From contig DJFZ01000032.1 in assembly GCA_002432655.1 (NCBI GenBank), forward strand, positions 1,775-65,774: a stretch of 64,000 nucleotides of DNA, given 5' to 3'. The stretch's first letter is position 1. Each line of letters opens with the position of its first letter. Origin of the DNA: Thiotrichaceae bacterium UBA5859. Lineage in GTDB: Bacteria > Pseudomonadota > Gammaproteobacteria > UBA5859. The notes beneath the pieces are model-generated. The model saw only the letters and a list, made by a program, of their open reading frames with translations. It was not told the DNA's origin and did no database searches. The translations under genes were made by a program, and so were the position numbers. This document shows positions 32,294-56,941 of the stretch, one piece after another.

Positions 32294-32977
32294 CTACACG
32301 GCGGCCGGTAACAGAGCGTCTTCATTCTCCACGGCGCTTTTGTACTCCGCCTCTACACGGCTATGAAAATATCTTCTATTTTCCTTCAGAGCTTGGAGCA
32401 CTTGTTGAGGTCTTCCTACGTAGGGCACCCGCTTGCCCCGATGCCGGCACTCTTGTCCACACTGCTTTAACTCAATACCTAATGAGCGATAGACGCGCAA
32501 AAGTGTGAGAGGCACAATACCGACGATGCCCTCAACCTCTGCTTGATCTGAATGAGCCGAAGCGGCGCGCAACATACCCGCGATAATCGGCTTCTCCGGG
32601 CGAATGGTTTCCCTCTTTAAGCCTACTCCGATCAGCGTTTGAATAGCCAATTCTCTATCGATACACAGACGCGACAGCTCGACAATTTTTCCATGACGGC
32701 ATTTATTTAAGATGCCATCATCCAACTCAGTAATCAGTGCTGAGGGTATTTGCGGATTAGACGAAATCAAGCGAAATCCTGCCACAATCGCATGAGATGC
32801 TTTGGATTTAACAATAAAATGGCTAGAAGTTTGATCGAAGAAATCCCGCTCCATTCTATCTTTGCTGACCCGCTCAAACTGCTTTAATTCACAAAATATT
32901 CGATGTCTTAACCTAAAGTGAGCCAGTCTTGTTTCTTCATCATTTGCCAATATTACTTCAAAATGATCATCGAACAT
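32294..32977 (-). CDS. LuxI/FeeM-like GNAT-fold acyltransferase, paralog A (resembles PEP-CTERM/exosortase-associated acyltransferases)
   Basis: FRLRHRIFCEL...ELSRLCIDRE...HGKRVPYVG motifs are shared with the downstream paralog and with autoinducer-synthase/N-acyl amino acid synthase-like families. Confidence 0.55.
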   Translation of the reverse strand: MFDDHFEVILANDEETRLAHFRLRHRIFCELKQFERVSKDRMERDFFDQTSSHFIVKSKASHAIVAGFRLISSNPQIPSALITELDDGILNKCRHGKIVELSRLCIDRELAIQTLIGVGLKRETIRPEKPIIAGMLRAASAHSDQAEVEGIVGIVPLTLLRVYRSLGIELKQCGQECRHRGKRVPYVGRPQQVLQALKENRRYFHSRVEAEYKSAVENEDALLPAAV

Positions 32978-33305
32978 CTACATAAACCTTCCTTGAATAC
33001 TGCTTTCAATATCTCCGCTGGAGATTAACTTTTTACGTTTCTAGGCACTGCGCGGGGTTAAAACCCAGATTGACTCATCTTATAGCGACTGGATTGTGCT
33101 CAGATTGAAGACGGGATCACCTTCGGATTGGCTCACTTCCGCCCTCTATCTATCGATGAAAAAATGAATTTATCAATAAAAATAAGGTGTTGGGAGGTTA
33201 ATCTAGAGTATAAAAACAAAAGTCGAACCTTTTCAACAGATTTAATATATTTCAGCGTTTATTCAACATCGTTTTTATTAAATTTTTCTTAATAATGCAC
33301 AACTT

Positions 33306-34121
33306 TTAAACATGATTAACGCAAGAACGCGGTGGATGCCAATAACACTCTCCATTGGTAATAAAATGGTAAACTTCCGGGCGCAAATGTTGAATGCCCA
33401 ACAAAACCTCTTCCACGCTGTTAAAAACCGGAACCCTCTTGCCATGGTATTCCACGTCCGTTCCAATACGCATAAATTCGATACCAAATCTCTTTAAAAG
33501 CCGTAACAACATAGGTTCCATCACCGCAAACCAATTATCAATGCCTTGGTCCGCACTCATTTGCACAATCGAACGGAACAGCCCTAAGGTGATATAGGGT
33601 AGATAGCGACGCTCATTGCTCATCGGTCCCTCATCCAATTGTTGAACAGCTTTATTGGTTATACCATGATGTACGTTTTGCTCACCAATGCGTCGTCGAA
33701 ACTCGCGAGAAACAGCAAATCTAGAAATTTCTGCAGCCGTCTTTCTGGTTTGGGAAGATACGCGGTAGCCGTAGTTTGCCAAACTAGTTCCACAATGCTG
33801 TTCAATCGGAAGCAGACTAAATTCTGAGCCATCCATCGGCAGGACCAACCGTACAGTTGCGGCATCCCAACCTGTTCTTTTATGGCGGATCAGGCAGTGT
33901 ACTGATCGACTATCGTAAATATCCCGCTCTAATCCACGATAACATTGTTGAGGATTTTCAAACGGATGCTCCAAACAATACACTTGATAACGTAGCCGAA
34001 ATACTGCGTCAAGCATTTCATCAGTTTTCACAGGCAAGATTTCGAAATAGTCGAAAAAATGATCTAACTCACTTTGTGTGGCGCTCCTGCCTAGCTCCCT
34101 TGAAACTTGTTTACTCATCAT
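33306..34121 (-). CDS. LuxI/FeeM-like GNAT-fold acyltransferase, paralog B
   Basis: FRLRYQVYCLEH...EISRFAVSREFRRR...YHGKRVPVFN; clearly alignable with paralog A along its length, with an extra N-terminal ~20 aa and internal indels. Confidence 0.55.
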   Translation of the reverse strand: MMSKQVSRELGRSATQSELDHFFDYFEILPVKTDEMLDAVFRLRYQVYCLEHPFENPQQCYRGLERDIYDSRSVHCLIRHKRTGWDAATVRLVLPMDGSEFSLLPIEQHCGTSLANYGYRVSSQTRKTAAEISRFAVSREFRRRIGEQNVHHGITNKAVQQLDEGPMSNERRYLPYITLGLFRSIVQMSADQGIDNWFAVMEPMLLRLLKRFGIEFMRIGTDVEYHGKRVPVFNSVEEVLLGIQHLRPEVYHFITNGECYWHPPRSCVNHV

Positions 34122-34278
34122 GGCGACTGTGGCCTACTTTCCGAATAATTATATTTACTATAATAATAGTCGACCCGATATTGTCCCTATTGAGTGTCTA
34201 ATATTTAAACAGTTGTGAACCTGGTCGCAAAAATTAATATTTATTTATATGTAGAAAGAGGGCTTAACCTGGATACGG

Positions 34279-36540: not shown

Positions 36541-38366
36541 AATGCCACGCTCCAGCCAAGCGCAAGATAGTCTCTGGAGTCAAAAAATCCGCCTATTGTT
36601 TGTTCATCTCCATCAAATGTATGGTAGGCAACAATCAGCTCGTGGGGTTCGAAGTTGCGAAACACAAGCTTCGGAGAGAGATAATAGTCCTCTTCACTGA
36701 GACCGATGCGACTACGCAGTTGAAAGCGGACACGATCATTCGCGAAAGCGTACTCAAGCTGACCATTGAGTGCATAAGTTTCGTCATCATCGAGAAATGG
36801 CTCATCCGCAGTTTTGCGATTGCCCGTCAACTGTATATTGATTCGAGTATCTTTATCGCCCGGATAAAACTCCATATCCAAAATCCAATGTAGTTGTTCA
36901 CTCTCGAGTAGTGCAAGATCCACGCCCGTCACCGGCATATCCTGCAAATTTGCCACTTCAAAGCGTAGTAATGACAAACCAAGATCCCAGGCGAACTCTA
37001 ACCCTGTGGCGACGATTTTTGGATGAACTTCAAAAAAGGTAGGCCCGCTGGTGGCTGCCAGCGCAGTGTCCACATCATTGTTGGATAAAACGAGATTCTG
37101 CACCATTTCTGGTGAGACGATAAAATAAGGCTGAGGGTTTTGTGTTTCCAAATAGCTCATTCCCCAATCCATCGAATTTAACGATTGCGTAAACCTAATC
37201 CCTCCAGACTCCTGCTCTTCTTCACGTATGCTAAGGGAGCCTTGTGTCACTAGACGAGCGATCAGCGGTGTCTCACTAAAGCCTAATAGCTGCCCACTCT
37301 GAGGGGACATCAGAGTCCAGAATTGGTCTCGATCAGCGGTCAATGGAGATAAGCTATTTGGTATATATAGAACATCCAGCTTGGCAGAGCCCAGAAACCA
37401 CTCGAGACGAAGCGCCGGAGTAGCCAATCGCCGTTCAGGTAACTCATCTATAAACCCGCGTCTAATATCCTGTCGACTGAGTAAATCTAATGGGCTGAAT
37501 TCGTCTGCTTGCCCCCAAATCACCGTTTGTGCACCCAAAGTCAAACGTGCAGACTCGCCACGGTAGCGCAAATAGGCTTGATCTAGTAAAAGCTTATAAT
37601 CTCTAACTTCATTAACCGCACTAAGCACGTAAGCATCTGCTCGTGCACCGATCCTAATTTTCCAGCCTGGAGACAACGCCCAATTTAATTCAGATCCAAT
37701 ACGCAAATAATTTGGATAGGTTTCATGTTCTGCAGTTGAACGCCCAAGTTCAGAATAAAGCTCATTTTTCAGTTCAATGGACGCAAATAATGCGCTTGTT
37801 ACCTCAGTTGTTTTCTCCGGAACTGAGTCTAGTACCTCTTGTCGCTGCTCAGTGCCGTCTTCTGCTAAGTACCCTCGCACTATATATCGGAGTTGTTGCT
37901 GTTCGAAAGGATGGGAATCAACTTTGTATCCTAGCGATTCGACTCTATTTTTGGTTCTTTGCAGATAATCCCGACTTTTAAAAATGCCTACTGATATCCA
38001 TAACTGCTGAATATGTTGATTACCAAAGATCTGTGTTTCAACTCCATGCTGCGCAAGCCTTCGCTGCACCCTCTGCGCCTCATCCATTTGAGAGATCGGA
38101 CCGATGCGCAGTTGGGTGAACAACACCAGTGTCTGTTTCTTCTCAATAGAAATATTGGTTGCGCCCTGGGCTACAAGAACGTCTACCCGCTCTTGCGCGG
38201 CCGATTGTGTCTCATACATCTGCTCAAACCAATTAGAGTGTTCCTGAGCTACGAGTGTGGACAGTAAGGTGTTAATCACAAAGAGGGTGACCAGGAAAAT
38301 GAGGGTTCGGAAATGGCTGACAGCGATGAGCATACAAACAAAGTTCCGCAGGCGTAGATTTGCCAT
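36537..38366 (-). CDS. Putative outer-membrane beta-barrel protein with N-terminal signal/anchor and SPOR-like module
   Basis: 609 aa; long hydrophobic N-terminus; alternating amphipathic beta-strand-like pattern; C-terminal ...LGWSVAF ending in Phe, typical of OMP barrels; translationally coupled to the MMPL gene. Confidence 0.45.
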   Translation of the reverse strand: MANLRLRNFVCMLIAVSHFRTLIFLVTLFVINTLLSTLVAQEHSNWFEQMYETQSAAQERVDVLVAQGATNISIEKKQTLVLFTQLRIGPISQMDEAQRVQRRLAQHGVETQIFGNQHIQQLWISVGIFKSRDYLQRTKNRVESLGYKVDSHPFEQQQLRYIVRGYLAEDGTEQRQEVLDSVPEKTTEVTSALFASIELKNELYSELGRSTAEHETYPNYLRIGSELNWALSPGWKIRIGARADAYVLSAVNEVRDYKLLLDQAYLRYRGESARLTLGAQTVIWGQADEFSPLDLLSRQDIRRGFIDELPERRLATPALRLEWFLGSAKLDVLYIPNSLSPLTADRDQFWTLMSPQSGQLLGFSETPLIARLVTQGSLSIREEEQESGGIRFTQSLNSMDWGMSYLETQNPQPYFIVSPEMVQNLVLSNNDVDTALAATSGPTFFEVHPKIVATGLEFAWDLGLSLLRFEVANLQDMPVTGVDLALLESEQLHWILDMEFYPGDKDTRINIQLTGNRKTADEPFLDDDETYALNGQLEYAFANDRVRFQLRSRIGLSEEDYYLSPKLVFRNFEPHELIVAYHTFDGDEQTIGGFFDSRDYLALGWSVAF

Positions 38367-38374
38367 GACGATGA

Positions 38375-39154
38375 TTAAAGTTCTTCTAAGGAGCGTCGTG
38401 AGAATCTATCCCTTGACAAGCCCATGTCATAGTCTATGGACTCCAAGCGAATTTCGGTGCTATGTTGAGAGATCAAATCGGTCATGACCGAATGCGTCAC
38501 AGTCCAATATCCCTCGATTTTCTTTTTCGAAAGAACTTTAAAACTCTTTATAGGGTCCTCATCACCCGACCGATAAAACTCGATTTTCATCGCTAATAGG
38601 GTGTCGGGATCAATCCAGCTGAGACGCTTGCTATAAACAGTAGACTGCGCTCTGAGCGGAATACTCTCTAAAACTATACAGTCGCAGCTGCCAATGGGCA
38701 TCGCTTTCACAATCGCATGTTTATCAAGATTAGGCGGCCTATCTCTAAGATCTTCAAAGAAGATATCAGAGCCAACAAATCGTCCTCCCTTTCTGGAAGA
38801 AGCAATACGACGTGCTCGATCAAGATCAGGTAAAAAAACCAATTGCTCTTTGTTTACCCCACTCACATCATGGGTCAACAAACCCACCCCCTTCATATCT
38901 GCTGGCGAGCTAAAACGTATCAGCGAGCGAATGCCTCCAGCTCCTTCATCTAGGCGATAGGTAGTCATGCGGCGAATACGAGGCTTGGTACCAGGTGAAA
39001 TTAAATGCATTTCGCCTACAGAAACGAAATCAATACCGTCAGGTCGTTCATACACCCGCTGGGCAAGAAGATCACCATCTTCCGTTGCCCATGAGGGTTG
39101 AACAAACAGCGTCAGTATAGGCGCAATAACAGCTAAAAGTATAGAAAACCGCAC
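38375..39154 (-). CDS. LolA-like outer-membrane lipoprotein-sorting family periplasmic protein
   Basis: Signal peptide; IRFSSPADMKGVGLLTH...QLVFLPDLDRARRIASSRKGGRFVGSDIFFEDL matches the conserved core of the LolA_like family often paired with MMPL transporters. Confidence 0.65.
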   Translation of the reverse strand: MRFSILLAVIAPILTLFVQPSWATEDGDLLAQRVYERPDGIDFVSVGEMHLISPGTKPRIRRMTTYRLDEGAGGIRSLIRFSSPADMKGVGLLTHDVSGVNKEQLVFLPDLDRARRIASSRKGGRFVGSDIFFEDLRDRPPNLDKHAIVKAMPIGSCDCIVLESIPLRAQSTVYSKRLSWIDPDTLLAMKIEFYRSGDEDPIKSFKVLSKKKIEGYWTVTHSVMTDLISQHSTEIRLESIDYDMGLSRDRFSRRSLEEL

Positions 39155-39240: not shown

Positions 39241-39280
39241 AAAAAAAAAGCCTCGCAAGGCGAGGCTTTTTTGTTTTTTT
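39241..39280 (-). terminator. Rho-independent terminator downstream of the PEP-CTERM gene, likely bidirectional
   Basis: A9-gcctcgc-aag-gcgaggc-T6gT7: a GC-rich 7-bp stem, 3-nt loop, flanked by an A-run and a T-run. Confidence 0.8.
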
Positions 39281-39287
39281 ATCGGAT

Positions 39288-40181
39288 TTACCGAACTCTT
39301 CGTCGAGCCAGACCACCCATCCCTAATAATCCTAACCCCATCAAAGCGAGCGTTCCAGGTTCAGGTACAGCAACTGTGAAGTCGATACTACCATTATGGT
39401 CAGAAAGCACAGTAAACAGTTCAGAATTTAAAGGATCTCCAGGACCTACTACTACATTATCTGTGTTTTGGTCTAAATTCCAGGAAAGCGCAATGATGCC
39501 ACCATCTAATAAATCGTTGGCATCGGAATCTGCGCTTGTATCTGCAATACCATCACCATTGCTATCAAAGAAGAAGAAATCTTCCAGAGCAAAAGTGATT
39601 TCACCAAAAATAATGGAAGAACCTGATACAAAAGCACCACCCGCGAAAAGATTCGAGCCTGTACCACCGAGAATAGTCAACTCAAGAACCTTGGTTCCAT
39701 CACCGTAGCCAGTGTCATCACCCAGACCTAAACTACCATTGTCATTGCGATTTAATGCGGTATCTAGATAAAACGAGATGACGGTACCAGAATCGTAGGT
39801 AGTGGTTTGATTTACGCCGTCAAAAGCAGTTACGGTTCCGCTTAGTCCAGTCCAGGTTGCGGTTAACTCATACCCGCCTAGAGAATCCAAACCTTCATCA
39901 TCAATTATCGCTGAAGCTATCAATCCATTAATGTAGGCATTACCAGAATCAACAAAGGAGTCCCCTACGGTTAGACCTGGATTACCATCATCATCAAATT
40001 GAACAGACTCTGTGTTCGCAGAAAAAGCGAACTGCTGTGCCACACCAGTCAGAGTGTTGGCATCAAAGCCTGTTCCAGCAGAACCTGCCACACCAACATC
40101 ATAAAAAAAGCCAGTAGCAAAAGCACTAGAACTTGCCGCTAATATTGAAGCCCCTAAAGTCGCCTTACTTAAAGTTTTCAT
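39288..40181 (-). CDS. PEP-CTERM sorting-domain exoprotein
   Basis: Signal peptide MKTLSKATLGASILAASSSAFA; Gly/Asp/Thr/Ser-rich body with Asp-rich D-x-N-x-D-G-like loops (FDSNGDGIADTSAD); C-terminal VPEPGTLALMGLGLLGMGGLARRRVR, i.e. PEP motif, TM helix and Arg cluster. Confidence 0.9.
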   Translation of the reverse strand: MKTLSKATLGASILAASSSAFATGFFYDVGVAGSAGTGFDANTLTGVAQQFAFSANTESVQFDDDGNPGLTVGDSFVDSGNAYINGLIASAIIDDEGLDSLGGYELTATWTGLSGTVTAFDGVNQTTTYDSGTVISFYLDTALNRNDNGSLGLGDDTGYGDGTKVLELTILGGTGSNLFAGGAFVSGSSIIFGEITFALEDFFFFDSNGDGIADTSADSDANDLLDGGIIALSWNLDQNTDNVVVGPGDPLNSELFTVLSDHNGSIDFTVAVPEPGTLALMGLGLLGMGGLARRRVR

Positions 40182-40230
40182 TTTATCACCCTTACATCAC
40201 TAGGATTTATCTCTATCTGCTTAAGCTATC

Positions 40231-40246
40231 AGCAAGTGCTGTGCCA
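40231..40246 (-). promoter_or_regulatory. Sigma-54 (RpoN) -24/-12 promoter for the PEP-CTERM gene
   Basis: Minus strand reads TGGCAC-AGCAC-TTGCT, a perfect TGGCAC-N5-TTGCW match. The -12 element lies ~50 nt upstream of the ATG, with an AAGGGTGA Shine-Dalgarno between; the sigma-54 activator PrsR is encoded just upstream. Confidence 0.65.
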
Positions 40247-40479
40247 AACCGTCTTAACCAGAATATCTTATTGTTTTATAAAGCATTTTTTATTTATGCA
40301 TCACGACTAGAATCCACCTTAAAAGTCAGTTAGCAGGATCCGCTGATAAAACGTAAAAATAGCTGACAGATTTTATCCATGATCCTGAAACCATCTAGGC
40401 AGCCATATTGACAAATGGTCTTTTATTGTTATTTTTCAATAGCTTATATTTTAGTCGGCAGTGTAAAAAAATTTAACGG

Positions 40480-41394
40480 CTAAGGTTGAGAGCGCGCGAG
40501 TCTGCTACCGAATTGCCTTTTAGCATGTGAAATGAGCAATCTTTGCATGGGGTTCCTCCATCCAAAGGGTCTCCAAGTTTTACGTAATCGTTGTTTGTAG
40601 GCATCGAAGTGTAAGCCCCATGGTGCCGTTGTCACCTTTCCCCTAGCAAGCAAGATTTTTAAGGCTTGAGTGGCGGCTAGTCCCGCACATAACTCACAGG
40701 CCATTGGCGTAGACGGCCCTTGTCTGCGGTTAAAATCCACACGACTAGGCTCGATCAGATAACCCATCTGCAACATGGCCGGTGAAAGGCCGACCAGAAA
40801 TCGTATATATTGTTCCACTTCATCACGTCCTTGTAGGCCAAAATATGCCTCGAAAGACATGCCGCTGGGTAAAAATGCTAAGAACGCACAACCCATGCCC
40901 AAGGGAGCTGCAGTAATCGCCGGAATACCGCGCTCACCACAGGCGGTAAACAAAGCAGAACGTATTGGTAGCTGAAAAAAATCCAGGCTATCGACATAAA
41001 TATCAACGTCTTGGAGAAAATCATCCAGATTTTCCTCAGACACCCCTTGTTCAAAACCGGTTAAGTGCAACTCGGGATTAATATCGAGCGCCATCTGTGT
41101 CATGGTCTCTAATTTCGAACAACCCATGGAGCGAAGGCTGGCACCCGCTTGTCGATTAAAATTCGCAAGCTCAAAGCGATCAAATTCAGCCAGACTAAAA
41201 CCACCAACACCTAATCGGGTTAGAGTCAGCAAATGACTTCCCCCCACCCCGCCTAAACCGGCGATGGCAATTTTTTTTGCGCGTAAAATTTGCTGCTCAG
41301 ATTCGGTCACCCAACCCAGATTGCGTGAAAAAGCTTGTTCGTACTGAAACTGATTATCATCCATGATTCGTATATCGCGTGATGTCACCCTCAT
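40480..41394 (-). CDS. ThiF/MoeB/HesA-family E1-like adenylyltransferase
   Basis: IAIAGLGGVGGSHLLTLTRLGVGGFSLAEFDRFELANFNRQ is a Rossmann nucleotide-binding and E1 signature; 304 aa; a single C-x-x-C (CELC) near the C-terminus. Confidence 0.75.
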   Translation of the reverse strand: MRVTSRDIRIMDDNQFQYEQAFSRNLGWVTESEQQILRAKKIAIAGLGGVGGSHLLTLTRLGVGGFSLAEFDRFELANFNRQAGASLRSMGCSKLETMTQMALDINPELHLTGFEQGVSEENLDDFLQDVDIYVDSLDFFQLPIRSALFTACGERGIPAITAAPLGMGCAFLAFLPSGMSFEAYFGLQGRDEVEQYIRFLVGLSPAMLQMGYLIEPSRVDFNRRQGPSTPMACELCAGLAATQALKILLARGKVTTAPWGLHFDAYKQRLRKTWRPFGWRNPMQRLLISHAKRQFGSRLARSQP

Positions 41395-41405: not shown

Positions 41406-44183
41406 CTATTGTTTAAGTTCCTGCCAGAGGGCTTCTGCTTCAGCTCTTGAATTGAATTCCCTTTGGCTATAAATAAAGGGCTCGAGGATCTCTCGCGCCC
41501 TTTCTTTGGCATTCAGGTGACTATTTACGAGCGCTAGGTGATAAGCGATGTCGGCGTTATTTCGCTGCTTTTGATATGCTCTACTCAATAACTCCTGCGC
41601 CTTAGTCCATTTATTTTCTTCCACCAGCAGCATAGCATAAGTATCCATGACTGCCGGCACCTCTGGTGCTAACTGATAGGCTTTTTCAGCGTGAGATAAG
41701 GCTTGTTGATACTCTTTGTCCCTTAAGTGCCAGGCTAGATTATTTAATGCCACTAGATTATTAGGTTTAACAGCTATTACTTTCTGCCAATAGGTAATCG
41801 CCAACTCTATTTGAGCCAGAGCTAAATATTCGTTTGCCATCCAAATCATTAAGCCCGTATCCTGGGGTCTATCTGCTATCCAGGCGTCGACAAATCTTTC
41901 CACCTGTTGCCAACCGCGACCAAGCTTTATCACCTGAGCAAGTGCGATAGCATTGCGCTCAGAGGCTTCAATCTCGATAGCTTGCCGCAGCGCGCGCTCT
42001 GCTCTTGAAAAATCTTGTACACCGTGGGCCAAGTCCGCCTCTAGCTCAAGTCCCATCACGGCCTCAGGCCACAACTGACGATATCGGTTAACTAAGGGCT
42101 CCGCTCGGCTAAATTGCTTTTCTTGCAGTAACAGTAAGGCAAGAATTCCTGTGGCAGACTGATTTTGTTCCTGCTCTTGTAACACCTGACGCAGATGGAA
42201 CTTAGCCTCTTCTGGATAACCGGCCGCCATATACGCCTGCGAAATGAGCAAGTTCGCATCAATATGGTTAGGATATGCATTCAATACGCGACGACAAGAC
42301 TGCACGGCTTGTTCCGGTTTGCCACGGCGAATCAATAGTTCACAATGAAACAGGGTGAGATCAGGTTGATCGGGTTCAACCTCCAACCCTTCATTAATTT
42401 GCGCCAGGACTTCGTTTAGCCTCTCTTCACTGAACAAATACTTAATTAAGGCAATTCGATTTTTAATCGAGTTTGCATCACTTCGCAATGCCAGCCGCAA
42501 CCAGCGCTCATAAGCATCAAAATCTTTTCGGGCACGGGCTAACTTGGCCATTTTCTCAATAGCCACTACATTGTTTTCATCTTGCTTCCAAACATCTAAA
42601 AACCACTTCTCAGCAAGCTCGTAGTCACCCCGACCCATAGCTATCTCGCCAATGTTAAATGCCGGCGAAGGATTTTTTCCATCAAGCTGATGTGCGCGTT
42701 CGAAACTAGCCATTGCTTCGTCCTCTTGTTTCAAGGACAAATGTGCGATACCCATCAAATTGTACGCAACAGGCTCCTTAGGGTAAGCAGCCACCCACTG
42801 GTTCGCAGCCTTAATAGCCGCATCAAATCGTTGCGCATCCAACAAGGCGAGGGTTTTAGTGAGATGAATTTGTGGGCCTGCTTGCGGTCGACCGAGTAAC
42901 GTATCAAGTTCTGTTAAGCCTCTATCAACCTGATCTGCGTCCACCAATGCTCCTGCCAGCTTAAACCTCAAAATATCTTCGTTTGGATTCTTGTCTACTA
43001 TCTCCTCCATCAGTTGCAAACCACGTTCTGTTTCGCCTTCACGCAGATATAGTTGTGCAGACAATAGCGTCAAACCGAGATGATCCACCGACAAAAGTAA
43101 ACCCTCTTCCACCACTTTTCTCGCCCGCTCTAGTTGCCCACTCTGAATTAAGATTTCCCCCAATAGTCGATAGGCGCCCACATTTTTGGGATGATCAAAA
43201 AGATATCGGGATACCAAACGCTCTGCCTGTGAATAATTTTTATCCTGCAAAAAAATAGTTGCCAACAGCAAAGGCACGTCCCTAAAGGAACGATACCTGG
43301 ACTCAATTTCCAGAAGAATCGCTCGTGCCTCATCTACCTGTCTATTTTGTAAAAGGATACGAGCCTTAGCGTATCGAGTTTCCAAATTACCATATATTTT
43401 ATCTGCTAATTCCACGTCTTTTAGGGCGGCTGCCGGTTGATTGCTATCGCTAAAATAATAGGCCCGTTGCAGCACTGCTAACCAATGATCCCGACTTCCA
43501 GGTACCGCCGATTTGATTGCTTGCGCGAACACGGCTTCCACCTCTGCACCTGATTCACCTTGAGTGGCCAACAGTAGCGCATAGATTCGGTATGCTTCCG
43601 ATACTGCACTATCCATCTGAATGGCCCTACTCAATGTGAGTGTCGCTTCTTCGAGATCGCCTTGGTTCTTTAAAATCAATCCGTATAAAGCAAGTGCTTC
43701 GCTATCGCTTGATAAATTTTCTAGACTGGTCAATAAATCTATCGCTTCTGGATAGCGGCCAAGAGCGAGCAGCACCCTCGCCTCTAACTTTATCAATGCA
43801 GATGTCGGCACCGCATTTTCAGGAACTTGTGCCAAACGAGATAATGCCAGTTCATTCTCATGCCTAAAGTGCGCAGCCTCGGCAAACGCCAGAATAAAAT
43901 CAAGGTCGGTTGCCCCCAATGCCTCTGCTTTTTCTAATTCCTTTTCCGCCGTGGGACCATCGCCAAGCAGCAAATAGTTTTCACCCAATAGGCGACGAGC
44001 TTCCACATGGTCTGGGCTGCGTTGCAATATGGTTTTCAGATCCAAAACACTTGCCTGGATCTCTCCTTGAGACTGCGCTACTTTCGCCCGCTCAAACAGC
44101 TCCTCATCGGAGGGTGTCCTGCTACAAGCGACTAACAGAAGTACCGGAACTAAAAAACCAAAAACCATCCTAATAAAACCCAT
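41406..44183 (-). CDS. prsT: PEP-CTERM system TPR-repeat lipoprotein, PrsT-like
   Basis: 925 aa; lipobox LLLVAC-S after the signal peptide; TPR repeats throughout; size and context match PrsT. Confidence 0.7.
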   Translation of the reverse strand: MGFIRMVFGFLVPVLLLVACSRTPSDEELFERAKVAQSQGEIQASVLDLKTILQRSPDHVEARRLLGENYLLLGDGPTAEKELEKAEALGATDLDFILAFAEAAHFRHENELALSRLAQVPENAVPTSALIKLEARVLLALGRYPEAIDLLTSLENLSSDSEALALYGLILKNQGDLEEATLTLSRAIQMDSAVSEAYRIYALLLATQGESGAEVEAVFAQAIKSAVPGSRDHWLAVLQRAYYFSDSNQPAAALKDVELADKIYGNLETRYAKARILLQNRQVDEARAILLEIESRYRSFRDVPLLLATIFLQDKNYSQAERLVSRYLFDHPKNVGAYRLLGEILIQSGQLERARKVVEEGLLLSVDHLGLTLLSAQLYLREGETERGLQLMEEIVDKNPNEDILRFKLAGALVDADQVDRGLTELDTLLGRPQAGPQIHLTKTLALLDAQRFDAAIKAANQWVAAYPKEPVAYNLMGIAHLSLKQEDEAMASFERAHQLDGKNPSPAFNIGEIAMGRGDYELAEKWFLDVWKQDENNVVAIEKMAKLARARKDFDAYERWLRLALRSDANSIKNRIALIKYLFSEERLNEVLAQINEGLEVEPDQPDLTLFHCELLIRRGKPEQAVQSCRRVLNAYPNHIDANLLISQAYMAAGYPEEAKFHLRQVLQEQEQNQSATGILALLLLQEKQFSRAEPLVNRYRQLWPEAVMGLELEADLAHGVQDFSRAERALRQAIEIEASERNAIALAQVIKLGRGWQQVERFVDAWIADRPQDTGLMIWMANEYLALAQIELAITYWQKVIAVKPNNLVALNNLAWHLRDKEYQQALSHAEKAYQLAPEVPAVMDTYAMLLVEENKWTKAQELLSRAYQKQRNNADIAYHLALVNSHLNAKERAREILEPFIYSQREFNSRAEAEALWQELKQ

Positions 44184-44210: not shown

Positions 44211-46982
44211 CTAGCTATCTAACTGGGTCAGAAGCTGTTCTGCTTGTGTTCGACTACTAAACGATCCAGGATTGGACAACAACTTTGTCAATAACGCTTT
44301 TGCTTCTGACTTTTTACCATTTCGCTGCAGTAACACCGCCAAATGATATGAAATCTCCTGATCTTTCGGATTAAGCCTATGTGCCTTATGAAGCAACTCG
44401 CTGGCGTGGTTCAGTTTGTTGTGCGACAGAAGCACCCACCCATACGTATCCACCACCGCAGCATCCTCAGGCGCCAATTGATAAGCCGATTTAGCATGCT
44501 TAAGAGCTTTTTGCAGATCAGTGTCTAGATAAAGATAGGCCAGATTGTTGTGGATCTGTACTTCTGATCCGGAAGATTCGTCCAGCAATCTTTCGTACTC
44601 GGCAATTGCCAAAGTGGACTGCCCAAGACGATGATATAAGGTCGCGAGCGCCAATCTGATATCTGTATTTGGTTCGTTGATGGTCAATGCGTCCGTTAAA
44701 AGAGTTATCGCCTTTTTTGGCTGTCCGGCTCGGAGACTTGCCCGGCTTGCTTGTATTAAAATCTCATCGGCTGGCTCTCGCACGTACGCGATTTCGTAGT
44801 TTTCGGCAGCCAATCCGAATCGATTTTGATGCGTGTAAATCTTAGCCGCCAAGTGATATCCCACAGCTTCATTTGGAGCTAACTGCTGCAGTCTATATGC
44901 AAATGCAAGCGCCAGATCTGGCTTCGCCCGACGCATCGCCAAATCCACTGCTACGATTAAGGTTCTCGGCCTCAAGCTATCTTCTGCGATTGACTGTAAC
45001 TGACTCCAAGCTTGTTGATATTGTTGTTGTTGGTAAAGTGCGTAAACAATAGATTCTGTGACACCGACTCCTGGGCTGAGTGCCCCCCCTAGTCCCTGAT
45101 AGTAGTCCAAAGCCAATGACCAGTGTTCATATTCTAAAAACACGTCACCGATACGCCTTCTCAGAGACAAACCGTCTGCATTCAAATTAAGTAATTGCTC
45201 CGCTATTCGTTGCGCCGCGGACGGATCCCCCATAGTCAGATGCACCCGCATGGTCATAAAACCAGCAGCTAAATCCTGAGGATTCAATTCCCAAGCCTGC
45301 TGGGCTGTTTGCAAAGCTTTTGAGTTATTTCCCGAATATAGATAGAACCTAGCTTGAGTTAACAACAGCTGTTTATCCAAAGGTACCTTTTTGCTCGCCT
45401 TTCTATAAAGCCTCTCTGCTTCATCAAAGTCTCGCTGCTGACGCTTAACTTCAGCTAAATTTAGCAGCGCTGGTAGATAATCTGCTTGCATCGATAACGC
45501 ATGATTGAATCGTTCCGAGGCCGCATCCACATCACCCTGATACAGTTTCACTAGCCCCAATAAATTAGCAGCAAAGGGTTCACTGGGATATCGGGCGAAC
45601 AAACGCTCAGCTTCTACAACTGCATCGTCGCTATATCCCGCTGTCAACAATGATAATACGGTAATATAACCGCTCTGTAATGAATCTGCTGCCGCACTAT
45701 ATCGTGCTTGCTCTAATGCTTGTTCTATTTGTCCGGAATAAATTGACTGAATCGTGTTTCGAATTTTTGCATTTTCGTCGTAGGGCTGAAGAAAACTAGC
45801 TTTCTCCAAAAGGTGCAATCCTTTTTTTTGCTCTCCTGATTCAATGTAAGCCAACCCCAATAGAGTCATTAGATCCGTATTGCCGTGATTCGATGATTGA
45901 ACCTGAGTTAACGTTGACACCGCACAAGAACTACAGCCCAGTAGTAACTGGACATTGGCATAAAGCATACTAATTTCTAAATTATTAGGTTCTAATTCTA
46001 AGTAATGCTTGAAGTGCTGTGTCGCTTGCTGATGATTGTCCTTGGCCATCGCTACTCGACCCAACAACTCCAATGCAGAAAGCTGATTCGGCTCCACCGA
46101 CAAAATTTCTTTTAGTTGCTGCTCGGCCAGATCATACTGTTGCGCAGACCACAACCATTGCGCCTGTAAAATTTTAGCAGGGAGCAAAGTGGGCTCTCTT
46201 TCCAATAACCAATTAATATCTTCCTGGGCACGATTGAACTCTTCATCAGCTAACAACAAGGCTGCGCGTCTTAACCTCGCTTCTATATTCTGAGGATGTG
46301 TTCTCAAGATTTTGGAATATTGTAATCTAGCTGCTTTTATACTCCCCCGTTTTTCATACAGTTGTGCACGTATAAACTGTGCACCAGAGTCATTCGGAAA
46401 ACTATCTAATAGCATGGTTAGATGACGTTCTGCAGAAACATCATCTCCTAGTTCAAATGCTTTGCGCGCCAAAGCCCAATTCGCCGTATGGCTTTTTGGG
46501 GATAACTCTAAGGCCTGTTGGAATTTAATTGTACCCTCTTTTATTTGACCCAAGTTCAATTCGGCCTGTGTTCGAAGCGCCAGAATTTCTCCTCTGATCT
46601 CTTGTGAATCATTGGCTTGCACTGTCAATTGATTCAGTATTTCTCTATTTTTTTCCTGTGCTAGGAAAAACTGCCCAAGCCATATCACATAAAATTTACG
46701 AGATAAGCCTTTCGTCTTAGCCAACTCAATCGCATGTTCTGCTTCATCGTAGCGCCCCATTTGCGCATAGATTTGGCTCAATAGAAATGGTGTGGAGAAG
46801 TTATTGGGATCTGCTTGTTGCGCATTCTTCAATTCAATCAATGCGGCACGAAAGTCTCCAGCCTCGACATATAGACGAGCACTGTCTTGAAATTGATCTA
46901 CGGAATCAGCCGCGAGCGGTATTGGACAGAGAAGAACAATCGCTATGAACTGTAGGTTTCTAGCTAACTTCACAACACTCAT
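44211..46982 (-). CDS. Second PrsT-like ~920-aa TPR protein (paralog; signal peptide, lipobox doubtful)
   Basis: 923 aa; signal peptide; TPR repeats; same length class and orientation as the adjacent prsT. Confidence 0.65.
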   Translation of the reverse strand: MSVVKLARNLQFIAIVLLCPIPLAADSVDQFQDSARLYVEAGDFRAALIELKNAQQADPNNFSTPFLLSQIYAQMGRYDEAEHAIELAKTKGLSRKFYVIWLGQFFLAQEKNREILNQLTVQANDSQEIRGEILALRTQAELNLGQIKEGTIKFQQALELSPKSHTANWALARKAFELGDDVSAERHLTMLLDSFPNDSGAQFIRAQLYEKRGSIKAARLQYSKILRTHPQNIEARLRRAALLLADEEFNRAQEDINWLLEREPTLLPAKILQAQWLWSAQQYDLAEQQLKEILSVEPNQLSALELLGRVAMAKDNHQQATQHFKHYLELEPNNLEISMLYANVQLLLGCSSCAVSTLTQVQSSNHGNTDLMTLLGLAYIESGEQKKGLHLLEKASFLQPYDENAKIRNTIQSIYSGQIEQALEQARYSAAADSLQSGYITVLSLLTAGYSDDAVVEAERLFARYPSEPFAANLLGLVKLYQGDVDAASERFNHALSMQADYLPALLNLAEVKRQQRDFDEAERLYRKASKKVPLDKQLLLTQARFYLYSGNNSKALQTAQQAWELNPQDLAAGFMTMRVHLTMGDPSAAQRIAEQLLNLNADGLSLRRRIGDVFLEYEHWSLALDYYQGLGGALSPGVGVTESIVYALYQQQQYQQAWSQLQSIAEDSLRPRTLIVAVDLAMRRAKPDLALAFAYRLQQLAPNEAVGYHLAAKIYTHQNRFGLAAENYEIAYVREPADEILIQASRASLRAGQPKKAITLLTDALTINEPNTDIRLALATLYHRLGQSTLAIAEYERLLDESSGSEVQIHNNLAYLYLDTDLQKALKHAKSAYQLAPEDAAVVDTYGWVLLSHNKLNHASELLHKAHRLNPKDQEISYHLAVLLQRNGKKSEAKALLTKLLSNPGSFSSRTQAEQLLTQLDS

Positions 46983-47021: not shown

Positions 47022-48383
47022 TCAAACTTTCAAATTATATTTACTCATTAAAGAGTAAAGTGTCGGCCGAGTGATACCTAGTAGTTCAGCAGCACGGGAC
47101 ATATTCCCTCCGGCATGACCTACTGCCTGAATGATGGCGTTCGTCTCTGCGCGTTCACGTACGGTGCGTAAGTTAAGAGGCAAAGACTGGTCTTTTTCTG
47201 CCGGAGTAATTTCTAGCTCGTCTGCTGAGATTTCATTGCCCTCAGCCATAATGACCGCTCTCTTGACGCGATTTTCTAATTCACGCACATTGCCAGGCCA
47301 TGCATAGTCCACAATTGCTTGACTGGCTTGAGAGGAAAACCCCTTAATTTCGATGCGATTCATTTCCCTTTTGAACCTATCTAAAAATGCCTTTGCCAAT
47401 AGCAGCACATCGCCTTCACGGGCTTTCAGCGGAGGAATATTAACCGTTACTTCACTAATTCGATAATACAAATCTTCTCTAAAATCACCTTGTTCTATTT
47501 TTTCTAATAGATCTTGATGAGTCGCTGAAATGATCCTCACGTCTACAGCTATTTGCCGTCGCCCCCCTACTCTCTCGATCACGCGCTCCTGGAGAAAACG
47601 TAAAAGTTTCGCTTGTAGTGGCAGGGGTAAGTCACCTATCTCATCCAGAAACAAAGTACCGCCGTTGGCCTGCTCAATCTTACCAATGGTTTGCTTAATG
47701 GCCCCGGTAAAGGCACCTTTTTCATGACCAAAGAGTTCCGATTCCAGCAAGTTGTCGGGGATAGCCGCACAATTGATAGCAATAAATGGCTCCTGCTCTC
47801 GACGACTTAGTTCATGTAATGCACGGGCAATGACTTCCTTCCCGGTACCACTTTGGCCAAGTAATAACACGGTTGCGTCGGTAGGGGCCAATTTTTCCAC
47901 CGTTCGACAAACTTTTAACATTTGAGGACTGGCCGCAATAATCCCCTTCAAGGGCGACGTCAGTTGAGTACTATGCTGCTGTCTCGACTCCTCTTCCAAC
48001 TGCCATACATGAAACGCTCGATCAACTATTAATTTAAGCACATCCGCATCAATAGGTTTTTGATAAAAATCATAAGCACCTTTTTCAACCGCCTGAATCG
48101 CTACTTTGCGATCCTCGTTTCCGGTCACCACAATGATTTTAGTGGCAGGTTGCAACTCTAATATTTCGGCGAGCGCCTTGAGCCCCTCACTTGCATTCGC
48201 CGGATCGGGTGGTAAGCCTAGATCACAAATCACCACTTGAGGCTCGTGACGTCGCAAGGCTTTAATTCCCGTCGCTCGGTCCGAACTAATCTCAACTAAA
48301 TAATCCTCGAAACACCATTTCAGCTGTTTTTGTAATCCTGCATCATCTTCAATTATCAAAATTGTTGGTTTTTCTTCCGACAC
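47022..48383 (-). CDS. prsR: Sigma-54-dependent response regulator of the PEP-CTERM system (NtrC family)
   Basis: Receiver domain (ILIIEDD...CDLGLP), AAA+ sigma-54 interaction domain with Walker A GQSGTGKE and GAFTGA motif (EKGAFTGA), C-terminal Fis-type HTH. Confidence 0.85.
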   Translation of the reverse strand: MSEEKPTILIIEDDAGLQKQLKWCFEDYLVEISSDRATGIKALRRHEPQVVICDLGLPPDPANASEGLKALAEILELQPATKIIVVTGNEDRKVAIQAVEKGAYDFYQKPIDADVLKLIVDRAFHVWQLEEESRQQHSTQLTSPLKGIIAASPQMLKVCRTVEKLAPTDATVLLLGQSGTGKEVIARALHELSRREQEPFIAINCAAIPDNLLESELFGHEKGAFTGAIKQTIGKIEQANGGTLFLDEIGDLPLPLQAKLLRFLQERVIERVGGRRQIAVDVRIISATHQDLLEKIEQGDFREDLYYRISEVTVNIPPLKAREGDVLLLAKAFLDRFKREMNRIEIKGFSSQASQAIVDYAWPGNVRELENRVKRAVIMAEGNEISADELEITPAEKDQSLPLNLRTVRERAETNAIIQAVGHAGGNMSRAAELLGITRPTLYSLMSKYNLKV

Positions 48384-48401: not shown

Positions 48402-50492
48402 TTAATTGCTCTTTTCTGTCGGTTTGACTAAGGGTAATCGAATAGTGAACAAGCTTCCCACACCGGGCTCACTTTGCACATCCAGACTGCCATCCATTCC
48501 AAGAATTATCGACTTACTCTCGTAAGCACCGATTCCCATACCGGCATTGCCCTTGGTGGTGTCAAACGGCACGAATAATCGCCGACGAATAAATTCTTGC
48601 GACATGCCTATACCTTCATCGGCAATTTCAATTTTTGCCAAATGTCCTTGATCATCTTTGCCTATCGTCACCCTGACGGGTGTATCCGATTCTGTTGCCT
48701 GCTGAGCATTCTGAATCAGGTGTTCTAGCGCAGAATACAGCTTCTCCCGATCCCCCAATACCTCCACTGATGAGTGTTTAGTGTTCAACATCACCTCAGG
48801 GGATTCGACCGATCTATCGGTGACCACCTGTTTCACCAAATGGTTCAATTCTATCGGTTGACGCTTGTAACCTGCTCGACCGCCTTGCCGCAAATGTGCC
48901 AACATACTCTCCACTCGAGCTACTGCATTGGCAACGGTATTGATTGCATCATCTACAAAATCGGGATTTCGCCGATGCTTGTCAGCATTGGCGACCACTA
49001 ACGAAAGCTGGGCATTCACGTTTTTGAGATCATGTACGACAAAGGCGGACAATCGATTAAATGCCTCGAACTGTCTAGCTTGTACCAAATTATCTGTGGC
49101 CTCTAGCAGTGCCACGGTATTGGCCAACTGTAGCCCCGCAGTCTTCAACAGATCCCTGTCTTCCCAATTAAGCTGTCTGGGCACGCGAGACGGCAGCAAT
49201 CCCACCAACCCAATCATATCATTCTGATAAAAGAGCGGCACCAAGACTGATAGTGACCCACTTTTCACCATCCAATCAGGCAAATCTAATCCCTGATAAA
49301 AATCTGGATTATCAAGATATTCCGTGACTTCTACTACCCAACCGGTTCGCCGTGAAAACTCTAACAAGGAGTGCTTTGCCGCTATCGCAGGCCAATCCGT
49401 TGGTGAACTGGTCTGCCAGGAAACCTCCGGTAGATAGTCGCCAGATTCGCTTTTCGTCCACAAAATTGCGCCAGTACTTTCAAACAGATCACAGATGGCT
49501 TTTAGAGCTTGTAGTTTTGGTTCCACTCTCTCATCAAATGTGGTTAAGGTTTCCATGAACCTAAGCCACTCTTTGCGGTAATCGTAGCCCTGTTGATAAA
49601 AATTCTTTTGGATGAATACTCTCATCCTGGCGCGCAGTTTCCCAGAAAAGAGCAACAGAGCCAGCAAGAGCACCGCACCCACCAAAAACACTGCCTGCAT
49701 TGCCATACCCCAGCTACCACCAATGGCCCTCAATAAATAGGCTGCCATCGCCATCAGCAGCAGATAAAACCCGGTAGCCGCGAGCGTGACTGTGTGCAGA
49801 ACAAGATCTTGGGAAATAAAAATTTCACGAGAACTAAAGTGGGTACGGCGAATATAGGGAATAACAATGAGCATAGCTAATGCAAAGACGAATCCCCTTG
49901 ATTGCCATAAAATGGGATCCAAAGCACCAAACAATAGTGCATGGGTATAGAGGAATAGATCATAGCCGAATATTGTCAGCAGCCCGAGGAACAAAAACTT
50001 CCAGCTCCACCGGTGCTCAACCTTGGTATTGGAGATCAGCTGCTCAGTGGCCAACAAACCAGAAACAGCCAATAAAGAGTGCCCCACAAGACGGATCTCC
50101 ATCTGCTGGCCGACACCGAATAACGCTTGGATGCTGAGAGGAAAGAGATCCACTACAAGTAGTAGCAGGCAAAAGAGATAAACTATAGGTTGGACAACAT
50201 TAAAGATTCGTCGAGCGTTACTGCCAGTGTCTACCAACGGTTGCAGTAACCGAAAAATAAAAGCAAACCAAAGCAGGTTTCGACCAATCTCGGCAACGTA
50301 ATAATAGTTTCCTAAATGCTTAAAATCGTCATAGGTGCTGTATCCGGCCACCAATGACCAAGCGGCCATGCCCAAAACAGGTAAAGTTAATTGATTCGCA
50401 TGTTCAGTTCGTCGTCGATTAGCCAGTAAGAAGGCACCGAGCACCAGCGCCACCACAGACGCTACGAGAAAACTAATAACCCCGACAGACAT
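48402..50492 (-). CDS. prsK: PEP-CTERM system sensor histidine kinase
   Basis: 696 aa; multi-TM N-terminal half, GAF-like region, HisKA H-box (VHDLKN), HATPase_c G-boxes; adjacent to prsR. Confidence 0.8.
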   Translation of the reverse strand: MSVGVISFLVASVVALVLGAFLLANRRRTEHANQLTLPVLGMAAWSLVAGYSTYDDFKHLGNYYYVAEIGRNLLWFAFIFRLLQPLVDTGSNARRIFNVVQPIVYLFCLLLLVVDLFPLSIQALFGVGQQMEIRLVGHSLLAVSGLLATEQLISNTKVEHRWSWKFLFLGLLTIFGYDLFLYTHALLFGALDPILWQSRGFVFALAMLIVIPYIRRTHFSSREIFISQDLVLHTVTLAATGFYLLLMAMAAYLLRAIGGSWGMAMQAVFLVGAVLLLALLLFSGKLRARMRVFIQKNFYQQGYDYRKEWLRFMETLTTFDERVEPKLQALKAICDLFESTGAILWTKSESGDYLPEVSWQTSSPTDWPAIAAKHSLLEFSRRTGWVVEVTEYLDNPDFYQGLDLPDWMVKSGSLSVLVPLFYQNDMIGLVGLLPSRVPRQLNWEDRDLLKTAGLQLANTVALLEATDNLVQARQFEAFNRLSAFVVHDLKNVNAQLSLVVANADKHRRNPDFVDDAINTVANAVARVESMLAHLRQGGRAGYKRQPIELNHLVKQVVTDRSVESPEVMLNTKHSSVEVLGDREKLYSALEHLIQNAQQATESDTPVRVTIGKDDQGHLAKIEIADEGIGMSQEFIRRRLFVPFDTTKGNAGMGIGAYESKSIILGMDGSLDVQSEPGVGSLFTIRLPLVKPTEKSN

Positions 50493-54919: not shown

Positions 54920-56941
54920 TTGATTGGCAGATATCTTTTAGAAATTCACACAAACCTCGTTAATATTGAACTTTTTGATTGTACATATTGTCGGTTCAAT
55001 GACATTAAATTTGGTTCTAGTTACGCAAACACTCATCTCGATGATGAAGGAATTTTTACGCTCTTGACGAAATCAATCAATCTCTACGCAGTTTCCGCCG
55101 GGCGGCTACTTGCGTCCCTACCAATATTAGCCTGGGCATTATGGTTCGCTCTGACTCACCCATTGTCACCATCACTGCTTTTCTTGTTCAGCTTAGTATA
55201 TTTTATATTAATACTGATCCAGCCCCACTTATGGCTTTGGATTGTCCCAGCCGCGTTACCCATCCTAGATCTAGCTCCACTAACCGGACGCTTCTATTTA
55301 GACGAATTCGATCTCTTAATGGCATTAACCATAATACGATTCTTGTTATTTCCTTCAGTACCTATCAGATCTAGCAGGCGGTTTCATTTCACGCTGTTTA
55401 ATTTGTTTATACTCTTTTATGGCGTTGCGGCAATACATGCACTCTTGCCCCTAGAAGCGATGCATTCAACCACCTTTTTCTCCTACTTCACACAATATAA
55501 CGCACTTCGCCTAATAAAGGGGCCAATGTGGGTTGGGCTTATTTATATTTTAGTTCGACATAATCAGATGCTGTTTAACAAACGCACACTATTTAACGGA
55601 ATCACGTTAGGCATGTCGTTGACCATCGCTGTTTGCCTGATAGAACGATTGTTATTTACGGGGTTACTGGATCTTTCCAAAGATTATCGCATAGCTGGGC
55701 TTTTTTCCGGAATGCACATAGGTGGTGCATATATTGACTCATATCTTGTACTGGCGTTGCCAGTTTTTATTTACACCTTACTTCATCGACAGAGAACTGC
55801 CGTTTGGACGATATTGATCTATATTTCAGTCCTAGCTTCAGTATATATAATTTATGTCACCTACTCTCGCACCACCTATCTGGCAGCCGTTTTTTGTGTA
55901 TTACCACTTTTATGGGTAGCCTACAAAAATCAGCGAGTCATAGGCGATAACAGCGACACAAAGAAATCTATTGTACTTTTAGGTCTCGTTCTCTTAACCA
56001 TCAGCTTACTTGTTTTCTCGGGTGGATTTATCCAGAAAAGGGTTGTAGATGTACCTGCGGATATGGAAAACCGCTATTCACACTGGAAAATGGTGCTGAG
56101 TTTGAAACAGAAAGATGTTTTTCATCATTTATTCGGTATGGGACTGGGTCAATACCCATTGCATTATTTTTGGAGTAGCAACTCTGATCGACGTCCGGGG
56201 GTTATCGGCATCAAGCACGCGCCAAATTCACACACGGTGTTGCTCTCCGGCGGCTCTCCTGTCTATCTTAACCAACACTTTGAACCTCAGAAAATGCGCG
56301 TGTTTTCTCTCATGATTAAGGCGAGAGCCCTCACTCCAGGCTCACATTTGGTCATCTATCTTTGTGAAAAATCCTATCTTTTTTCCGCTGATTGCTTGGT
56401 TCGTCATATTGGCGCCATCGTACCAGGCAGTGAATGGCAAAAAATTAATGTCTCTCTAACCTTAGACAACAGTTTGGGGAAATTCCAGGGAGTCAGAGAT
56501 AGTTTCGTCCCCTTAAGCCTGGGATTAGTTAATACCGGACAACATTCGCTATTGGAAATAGAATCAGTGACACTTCGTAATTCCAATGGAAAACAGCTGA
56601 TTAGAAACCATGAATTCAGCCACGGGACTCACCATTGGTTTTTCACCGCCGACAATCATTTAGCCTGGCATGTGGAAAATCTATTTATCTATTTCTGGTT
56701 TGAGTTAGGCATCATTGGTTTATTAATATTTTTGGCACTTTTGTCGCAATTATTACTAGCAGCATTAGGATCCTATAAATCTGGCCAAGCAGAAGATATA
56801 ATTCTATTTGGAGGGGTTTGTGGCTTAGTATTTATTGGTCTGTTTAACAGTCCATTTGACTTTCCACGTATTCTATTGCTATTTGGCTTATATTGTATCA
56901 GTATTTTGATTTTTGAAAGCGAACCGTATAAAACTACATAA
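54920..56941 (+). CDS. O-antigen ligase/polymerase-like (Wzy_C) polytopic membrane protein with a large periplasmic loop, of the PEP-CTERM-locus type
   Basis: About 10 TM N-terminal block including YSRTTYLAAVF; ~150-aa hydrophilic domain; two C-terminal TMs. Start codon uncertain because the first ~50 aa are not membrane-like. Confidence 0.55.
   Translation: MIGRYLLEIHTNLVNIELFDCTYCRFNDIKFGSSYANTHLDDEGIFTLLTKSINLYAVSAGRLLASLPILAWALWFALTHPLSPSLLFLFSLVYFILILIQPHLWLWIVPAALPILDLAPLTGRFYLDEFDLLMALTIIRFLLFPSVPIRSSRRFHFTLFNLFILFYGVAAIHALLPLEAMHSTTFFSYFTQYNALRLIKGPMWVGLIYILVRHNQMLFNKRTLFNGITLGMSLTIAVCLIERLLFTGLLDLSKDYRIAGLFSGMHIGGAYIDSYLVLALPVFIYTLLHRQRTAVWTILIYISVLASVYIIYVTYSRTTYLAAVFCVLPLLWVAYKNQRVIGDNSDTKKSIVLLGLVLLTISLLVFSGGFIQKRVVDVPADMENRYSHWKMVLSLKQKDVFHHLFGMGLGQYPLHYFWSSNSDRRPGVIGIKHAPNSHTVLLSGGSPVYLNQHFEPQKMRVFSLMIKARALTPGSHLVIYLCEKSYLFSADCLVRHIGAIVPGSEWQKINVSLTLDNSLGKFQGVRDSFVPLSLGLVNTGQHSLLEIESVTLRNSNGKQLIRNHEFSHGTHHWFFTADNHLAWHVENLFIYFWFELGIIGLLIFLALLSQLLLAALGSYKSGQAEDIILFGGVCGLVFIGLFNSPFDFPRILLLFGLYCISILIFESEPYKTT

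Follow-up and report, generated by a model that had tools for sequence, protein, structure and literature searches.

The stretch of DNA analysed here (64 kb in length, hereafter called the window) carries on its minus strand, in this order, galE, epsB2 (a TIGR03013 glycosyltransferase), prsK, prsR, two copies of prsT, a thiF-like gene, and pepA. The features that bear on the expression of pepA are listed in the direction of transcription (UAS, upstream activator site; EBP, enhancer-binding protein).

48402..50492, minus strand: prsK, transmembrane sensor histidine kinase (TIGR02916, 636 bits, cutoff 300)
47022..48383, minus strand: prsR, sigma-54-dependent response regulator (EBP; TIGR02915, 706 bits, cutoff 503)
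44211..46982 and 41406..44183, minus strand: two prsT genes in tandem, full-length TPR lipoproteins (TIGR02917, 484 and 433 bits, cutoff 312)
40480..41394, minus strand: ThiF-family gene (PRK08223; ThiF/E1-like adenylyltransferase; NF006077, 421 bits)
40478..40462, minus strand: candidate distal, weaker PrsR site CGTTAAATTTTTTTACA, 110 nt upstream of the main UAS and in the same orientation
40368..40352, minus strand: main UAS, a 17-mer TGTCAGCTATTTTTACG and predicted PrsR site ("motif 1" of Haft et al.), 105 nt upstream of TGGCAC
40351..40247, minus strand: AT-rich spacer between UAS and promoter, 105 nt, 32% GC, presumed looping or bending region
40246..40231, minus strand: sigma-54 promoter core TGGCAC-AGCAC-TTGCT (TGGCACAGCACTTGCT), read directly ("motif 2" of Haft et al.)
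40220..40182, minus strand: predicted transcription start site (G at ~40220) and 39-nt leader, placed by standard -24/-12 geometry
39288..40181, minus strand: pepA, 297-aa secreted PEP-CTERM protein (NF033554)
39272..39244, minus strand: intrinsic terminator, 16 nt past the pepA stop codon, with a 13-bp stem, a GC-rich core, and U9

The product of pepA matched the model NF033554 ("flocculation-associated PEP-CTERM protein PepA") at 101.1 bits (cutoff, 80), with residues 3 to 295 aligned, which agrees with an earlier note on this DNA that had taken the gene for a PEP-CTERM gene. A signal peptide (MKTLSKATLGASILAASSSAFA) is present, the C-terminus (VPEPGTLALMGLGLLGMGGLARRRVR) carries a sorting signal of the form VPEP-TM-RRRVR, and a public protein of 100% identity, encoded by a gammaproteobacterial MAG, bears the NCBI name PepA and carries PF07589. 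The terminator hairpin folds at -22.6 kcal/mol (z = -4.3), and none of 200 shuffles was equally stable; it is bidirectional, because its A/T flanks are palindromic. At this site, Rfam gave nothing beyond sub-threshold leader- or terminator-like matches. This strong hairpin with its U9 tract 3' of the stop codon implies that pepA is a single-gene unit.

We found the receiver Asp (VVICDLGLP), Walker A (GQSGTGKE), EKGAFTGA, and C-terminal HTH all intact in the translation of PrsR, whose model TIGR02915 is named after the "PEP-CTERM box," the cis-regulatory region described by Haft et al. in 2006. The earlier note had placed PrsK and a PrsR with an intact GAFTGA motif directly upstream of pepA. 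Both genes are indeed on the same strand and well identified; however, prsR lies 6.8 kb from the promoter and is not directly adjacent, because the two prsT paralogues (925 and 923 aa) and the ThiF-family gene intervene. The thiF-like gene, between prsT and pepA, has the same position in the Thiotrichaceae orthologue (L001 and L002). The annotated open reading frames of the window included no rpoN and no gene for an exosortase, and thus the circuit from PrsK through PrsR and sigma-54 to the PEP-CTERM gene, which the note had called self-contained, is not fully contained there, although its sequence elements check out.

Two other regions of the window were recorded. Downstream of pepA, at 32294-39154, lies a conserved string of genes for a LolA-like protein (PF17131), a DUF1302 protein, an MMPL/RND transporter, and a pair of paralogous exosortase-associated acyltransferases (TIGR03694), of which the second scored just under the cutoff (105 versus 112 bits). 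The gene at 23102-23728 scored 215 bits with NF050144, a model for HvfX-family Cu-binding RiPP maturation proteins, a match suggesting that the unannotated DNA on its flanks (22.4-24.6 kb) may hold a small RiPP cluster.

The sigma-54 core and the leader

The perfect -24/-12 core claimed for the minus strand at 40246..40231 was confirmed by direct reading, with GG at 40245/40244 (-25/-24) and GC at 40233/40232 (-13/-12). Its last -12 base is separated by 49 nt from the pepA start codon (ATG at 40181), very near the ~50 nt given before. The extended sigma-54 consensus is YTGGCACGr-N3-TTGCW; the base 3' of TGGCAC is A here instead of G, whereas the core consensus is perfect.

On both strands of the 64-kb window, the exact pattern TGGCAC-N5-TTGCW occurred only at this intergenic site, against 0.09 matches expected. 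At least one exact match was also present in 9 of 100 shuffled windows, so the match by itself is only mildly improbable, and at one or two mismatches the counts were at chance level. Taken by itself, the rarity of the -24/-12 match is only suggestive, and the case is built on context and conservation. All four one-mismatch sites lie within coding sequences, and three of them lack an intact GG or GC. The other, TGGCACTTTTGTCGCA at 56733..56748 on the plus strand, is the sole further site to keep both dinucleotides; it was rejected as a promoter, being inside a Wzy_C-like coding sequence, 214 nt before a small TPR gene and with motif 1 absent nearby, and is probably due to chance.

The intergenic region of pepA (40182..40479) measures 298 bp and has a GC content of 33.9%, compared with 45.4% for the window. 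An Rfam search of this region returned no match, and no sigma-70-like promoter was detected in a scan of its minus (pepA coding) strand. On the plus strand, the pepA control region contains a sequence that resembles a sigma-70 promoter well (40408-40435; TTGACA-16-TATTTT, TG extended); it faces the thiF-like gene in antisense orientation and probably arose by chance in AT-rich DNA.

Alignment with the intergenic region of the PepA orthologue in a Thiotrichaceae MAG (84% identity; fully syntenic locus, L001, L002, and L007) left three conserved blocks, while the rest had diverged. The first comprises the sigma-54 element and about 30 nt of leader (GTTTGGCACAGCACTTGCTGATAGCT..AGCAGATAGA.ATAAATCCTA), the second is the 17-mer TGTCAGCTATTTTTACG, identical at 17 of 17 positions within the diverged spacer, and the third is a short stretch directly past the thiF stop codon. 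The sigma-54 core was identical at 16 of 16 positions in the orthologues L001, L002, and L003. The orthologue is present in SRR26541420 as well. These comparisons indicate a functional sigma-54 site and not a chance match, because the site was kept together with the leader and the 17-mer while the intergenic DNA of the orthologue diverged.

Besides, exact TGGCAC-N5-TTGC was present upstream of distant, non-syntenic PepA homologues with 35 to 42% identity (L004, from a Logan contig; L006; L009, from Coxiellaceae; and L010, from Berkiella), and a homologue from Desulfuromonadales (L011) has the variant TGGCAT-N5-GTGCT. The motif TGTC-N6-TTTTACA, of the same length as our 17-mer, precedes the sigma-54 site by 118 nt in L004, 119 nt in L009, 118 nt in L010, and 60 nt in L011. 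In about 170 kb of fetched DNA, which covered loci from Thiotrichaceae, Coxiellaceae, Berkiella, Desulfuromonadales, and the Logan contig, a PEP-CTERM gene directly followed each composite of motif 1 and a sigma-54 site. The DNA upstream of the Francisellaceae homologue (L008) had neither a sigma-54 site nor a motif 1 that could be recognised. The 35%-identical homologue at L006:9690-9890 (GCA_054023835.1) has an exact TGGCAC-N5-TTGCA, upstream of which three or four GGAAAAA(A)TTTTTCC palindromes replace motif 1; this arrangement points to the use of a different activator in that lineage.

Within the leader, transcription would start at about G40220 (12 nt past the C in the GC of the -12 element), and a Shine-Dalgarno sequence, AAGGGTG, is found at 40193..40187 on the minus strand. 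The segment 40230..40201 (minus strand) contains GATAG repeats and AGATAAAT (40212..40205) and matches the orthologue at 27 of 30 positions, in contrast to a mostly diverged spacer. Two distant homologues, L004 and L006, also have AGATAAAT in their leaders. Across 33 PEP-CTERM promoters, the AGATA element of the leader was not enriched, and thus it stands outside the general motif.

Predicted upstream activator sites and the spacer

We characterized motif 1 with a position weight matrix (PWM) built from 33 dereplicated PEP-CTERM promoter sites, the consensus of which is TGTCGG-wwww-TTTTACA. TGTCAGCTATTTTTACG was the top match in the window with 20.1 bits, and the exact pattern TGTC-N6-TTTTACR occurred once there against 0.05 expected. 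The window copy of motif 1 is authentic but suboptimal, since other sites of the matrix score 21 to 27 bits; its bases at positions 5 and 17 are A and G, respectively. An inverted-repeat UAS had been anticipated within 40300..40450. A conserved UAS was found in this interval, but it is not a long inverted repeat: the repeat search yielded weak AT-rich pairs only, and the conserved 17-mer, of the form TGT-N11-AC(G/A), emerged from footprinting instead.

A second site may lie farther upstream. The sequence CGTTAAATTTTTTTACA begins 1 nt past the thiF-like stop codon and scores 13.4 bits, the third-best PWM match in the whole window on both strands; a match this good would arise by chance in 111 nt of the same composition with P ~0.001. 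Additional upstream copies of motif 1 are common among other PEP-CTERM promoters. Its counterpart in L001, CGTTATATTTTTTAACA, is only partly conserved, and thus we hold the assignment of 40478..40462 as a second PrsR site to be tentative.

The earlier note had pictured a region of about 300 bp, AT rich, with room for activator sites and an IHF bend site. The length, the base composition, and a UAS were borne out, but no IHF consensus (WATCAANNNNTTR) was found at one mismatch or fewer in the spacer of either the window or L001; among the spacers scanned, one-mismatch IHF sites were present in L004, L009, and L010 only. Conservation in the spacer is confined to A-tracts (AAAAAA and AAAACAA, at ~40291..40265), and alignment A1 with the orthologue shows the AAAACAA block retained. 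A role of the spacer in bending or looping may be presumed.

Four other PEP-CTERM promoters (L025, L064, L082, and L085) combine a distal spacer of 104 to 105 nt with a second copy of motif 1 located 42 to 43 nt downstream of the first. The two copies are about four helical turns apart, and the second forms a proximal site ~62 nt from the promoter, which reconciles the long-spacer matches with the mean of 63 nt reported by Haft et al. Such a proximal copy (about +42 nt from the main site) is absent from both the window and L001. Helical phasing of the spacers was not apparent, the vector strength being alike for all periods from 8 to 13 nt; this flat signal is explained by a spacer distribution bounded by the search range.

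The composite in metagenomes and in known systems

We scanned a metagenome collection for TGTC-N6-TTTTAC-N(96-126)-TGGCAC-N5-TTGC without using any protein information. The scan gave at least 120 matches, of which 80 loci were fetched and 59 had a complete downstream open reading frame (alignment A4). Among the matches listed, the Pfam PEP-CTERM domain (PF07589) was detected in 27 of the 59 downstream products, VPDSG-CTERM in 9, CBS in 4, and Usp in 3; a local HMM that included VPDSG-type tails called 31 of the 59. Classifiers based on regular expressions were discarded in favor of the Pfam and local HMM calls, as they were unstable (25 versus 18 positives). One locus from the scan, L069 (contig OBJS01001194.1), was identical to the window in both promoter and PepA.

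PEP-CTERM proteins are only a small fraction of any proteome, and judged against this general expectation the result of the scan is a very large enrichment. This enrichment marks the composite as the regulatory region of PEP-CTERM genes. Spacers of 95 to 121 nt were common before PEP-CTERM genes among the matches listed, the scan being limited to 95 to 125 nt, and the share of PEP-CTERM genes at these distances (27 to 31 of 59) suggests that long spacers belong to the same class.

In the same scan, a look-alike composite, TGTCAGTTTTTTTTACA about 105 nt upstream of TGGCACGACACTTGCT, was found before CBS-domain genes (L013, L014, L033, L074, and L077) and before Usp genes (L036, L037, L041, and L043), none of them PEP-CTERM genes. 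The look-alike may reflect a related EBP whose site is similar, and its presence before these genes means that TGTC-N6-TTTTAC is not exclusive to one regulon.

A composite of this kind was described by Haft et al. in 2006 as motif 1, a spacer, and the sigma-54 motif 2 before 99 of 167 PEP-CTERM genes from proteobacteria, most of which form single-gene operons with large upstream regions (PMC1569441). The region in the window shares with it the 17-nt motif ending in TTTAC(A/G), the spacer, the -24 GG/-12 GC element, more than 200 nt of noncoding DNA before a single-gene PEP-CTERM operon, and the presence of genes for PrsK, PrsR, and PrsT. The distance of 49 nt between motif 2 and the ATG is within the published range (23-221). 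TGTCAGCTATTTTTACG fits the published description of motif 1 (17 nt with a 3' TTTACA; PMC1569441) with one substitution, as it ends in TTTACG, with G instead of the final A. The window further differs in lacking a proximal copy at ~62 nt and in its spacer, which is 105 nt, compared with 62.8 +/- 10.6 nt and a range of 32-92 nt, a descriptive statistic from 13 genomes (PMC1569441).

The closest experimental parallels come from floc-forming bacteria. In the betaproteobacterium Aquincola tertiaricarbonis RN12, Xia et al. (2023) mapped the transcription start site of pepA downstream of TGGCAC/CTGCTT and found its transcription to depend on RpoN1; in the rpoN1 mutant, transcription of pepA decreased while that of the neighboring prsT was unaffected (PMC9850573). 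A predicted enhancer upstream of pepA and a floc-deficient prsK transposon mutant were also described (PMC9850573). Common to Aquincola and the window are a protein of the PepA family, TGGCAC at -24, a terminator 3' of pepA, and associated prsT, prsK, prsR, and epsB2. The arrangement differs: in Aquincola, pepA is located upstream of prsT, is preceded by only ~85 nt of intergenic DNA, and has CTGCTT at -12, and prsK-prsR occupy a separate locus, whereas the window has the order epsB2-prsK-prsR-prsT-prsT-thiF-pepA and a control region of 298 bp, and its circuit is predicted from sequence.

In Zoogloea resiniphila MMB, transcription of pepA requires RpoN and PrsK-PrsR (Gao et al. 2018, as summarised in PMC9012009). 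According to that summary, flocculation that depends on pepA is lost in prsK and prsR mutants, and overexpression of pepA bypasses both defects. As far as the summary describes it, the logic is common to both cases, a two-component system and sigma-54 acting on a PEP-CTERM gene that keeps exopolysaccharide cell bound, while organism and habitat differ. Thus, the circuit is already known in kind, having been predicted in 2006 and shown experimentally in Zoogloea (2018) and Aquincola (2023), and the differences of the present case are modest: a 105-nt spacer beyond the published range, another gene order, and a new lineage.

At promoters of the NtrC/NifA type, an EBP with a receiver, an AAA+ domain (GAFTGA), and a Fis-type HTH acts from a UAS about 100 nt upstream, across an AT-rich spacer, and the UAS of NifA is TGT-N10-ACA. 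The window resembles this type in the domains of its EBP, the distance of the UAS, the TGT...ACA-type ends, and the AT-rich spacer. Unlike the NifA UAS, motif 1 has an N11 spacing of half-sites and an asymmetric interior (TGTCGG...TTTTACA), and the IHF consensus was not found in the spacer.

Control of pepA transcription

We interpret 40182..40479 as the PrsR-activated sigma-54 control region of a monocistronic pepA, a reading to which we give a probability of roughly 85%. The circuit proposed in the earlier note is supported insofar as the cis-sites are conserved, the regulators match curated models, and the same circuit has been shown in Aquincola (PMC9850573) and, as summarised, in Zoogloea (PMC9012009).

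It is improbable that the sigma-54 promoter is real but that the 17-mer is bound by an EBP other than the neighboring PrsR. Look-alike composites precede CBS and Usp genes, the L006 homologue pairs its sigma-54 site with different upstream palindromes, and we know of no biochemical demonstration of direct PrsR binding to motif 1 in any organism. What weighs against another EBP is that PrsK, PrsR, and PrsT were discovered and named from the phylogenetic profile of motif 1, with an exact match across 13 genomes (PMC1569441). Moreover, prsR stands in the same gene string as pepA, with synteny kept in the orthologue, and no second EBP was present among the annotated open reading frames of the window. 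The loss of pepA-dependent flocculation in the Zoogloea prsK and prsR mutants, rescued by pepA overexpression according to the summary (PMC9012009), likewise favors PrsR.

More improbable still is that most pepA transcripts stem from a weak sigma-70 promoter or from read-through out of the upstream prsT/thiF-like operon, with a minor part for the -24/-12 element. A region of 298 bp with two selectively conserved blocks is unexpected for a simple operon continuation, and the -24/-12 element was kept in non-syntenic homologues with other upstream genes (L004, L006, L009, and L010). Some read-through into pepA is possible, because a scan of 40182..40479 detected no terminator-like site between pepA and the stop codon of the thiF-like gene (40480), and all of the genes are on the same strand. 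The minus strand of the intergenic region, however, showed no sigma-70-like promoter, and the Aquincola rpoN1 mutation lowered pepA transcription but left prsT unaffected (PMC9850573). That the -24/-12 match is a functionless accident of AT-rich intergenic DNA is hardly credible even though 9 of 100 shuffles hold such a match, as the site has the correct orientation and distance to a gene of a class known for such promoters, occurs together with another rare and conserved motif, recurs in distant homologues, and is effectively removed from chance by its perfect conservation amid diverging DNA.

Under PrsR control, the region would work as follows, by analogy with the general NtrC-type mechanism and with the genetics of Zoogloea and Aquincola. 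Sigma-54 RNA polymerase would sit on 40246..40231 as a closed complex unable to start alone. PrsK would phosphorylate the receiver Asp of PrsR, and the activated PrsR would assemble on TGTCAGCTATTTTTACG (40368..40352) and probably also on the weaker copy at 40478..40462. Looping of the 105-nt A-tract spacer could then bring the GAFTGA loop of PrsR into contact with sigma-54, and ATP hydrolysis would open the promoter. Transcription is predicted to run from about G40220 through the 39-nt leader and to end at the hairpin at 39272..39244. The product would be secreted as a PEP-CTERM protein belonging to the flocculation-associated PepA family and presumably be processed by an exosortase with a gene outside the window.

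It is conceivable, albeit rather unlikely, that the pepA subfamily has a distinct layout in which the proximal ~62-nt site is absent, the far site lies at 105 to 119 nt, a second site lies ~110 nt beyond, and the leader adds a second layer of control. Such a layer, for example a repressor or a control at the RNA level, may act through the GATAG/AGATAAAT segment (40230..40201) on top of PrsR and sigma-54.

As the understanding of the system is unchanged, the practical value of these results is mainly in annotation. They narrow the likely PrsR site to one specific 17-mer and extend the spacing between motif 1 and the promoter well past the 32-92 nt of 2006. The PrsK-PrsR-sigma-54-pepA flocculation circuit, which has been studied in betaproteobacterial sludge organisms, has recognisable cis-elements in uncultured gammaproteobacteria of the Thiotrichaceae-like and Coxiellaceae/Berkiella-like kinds.
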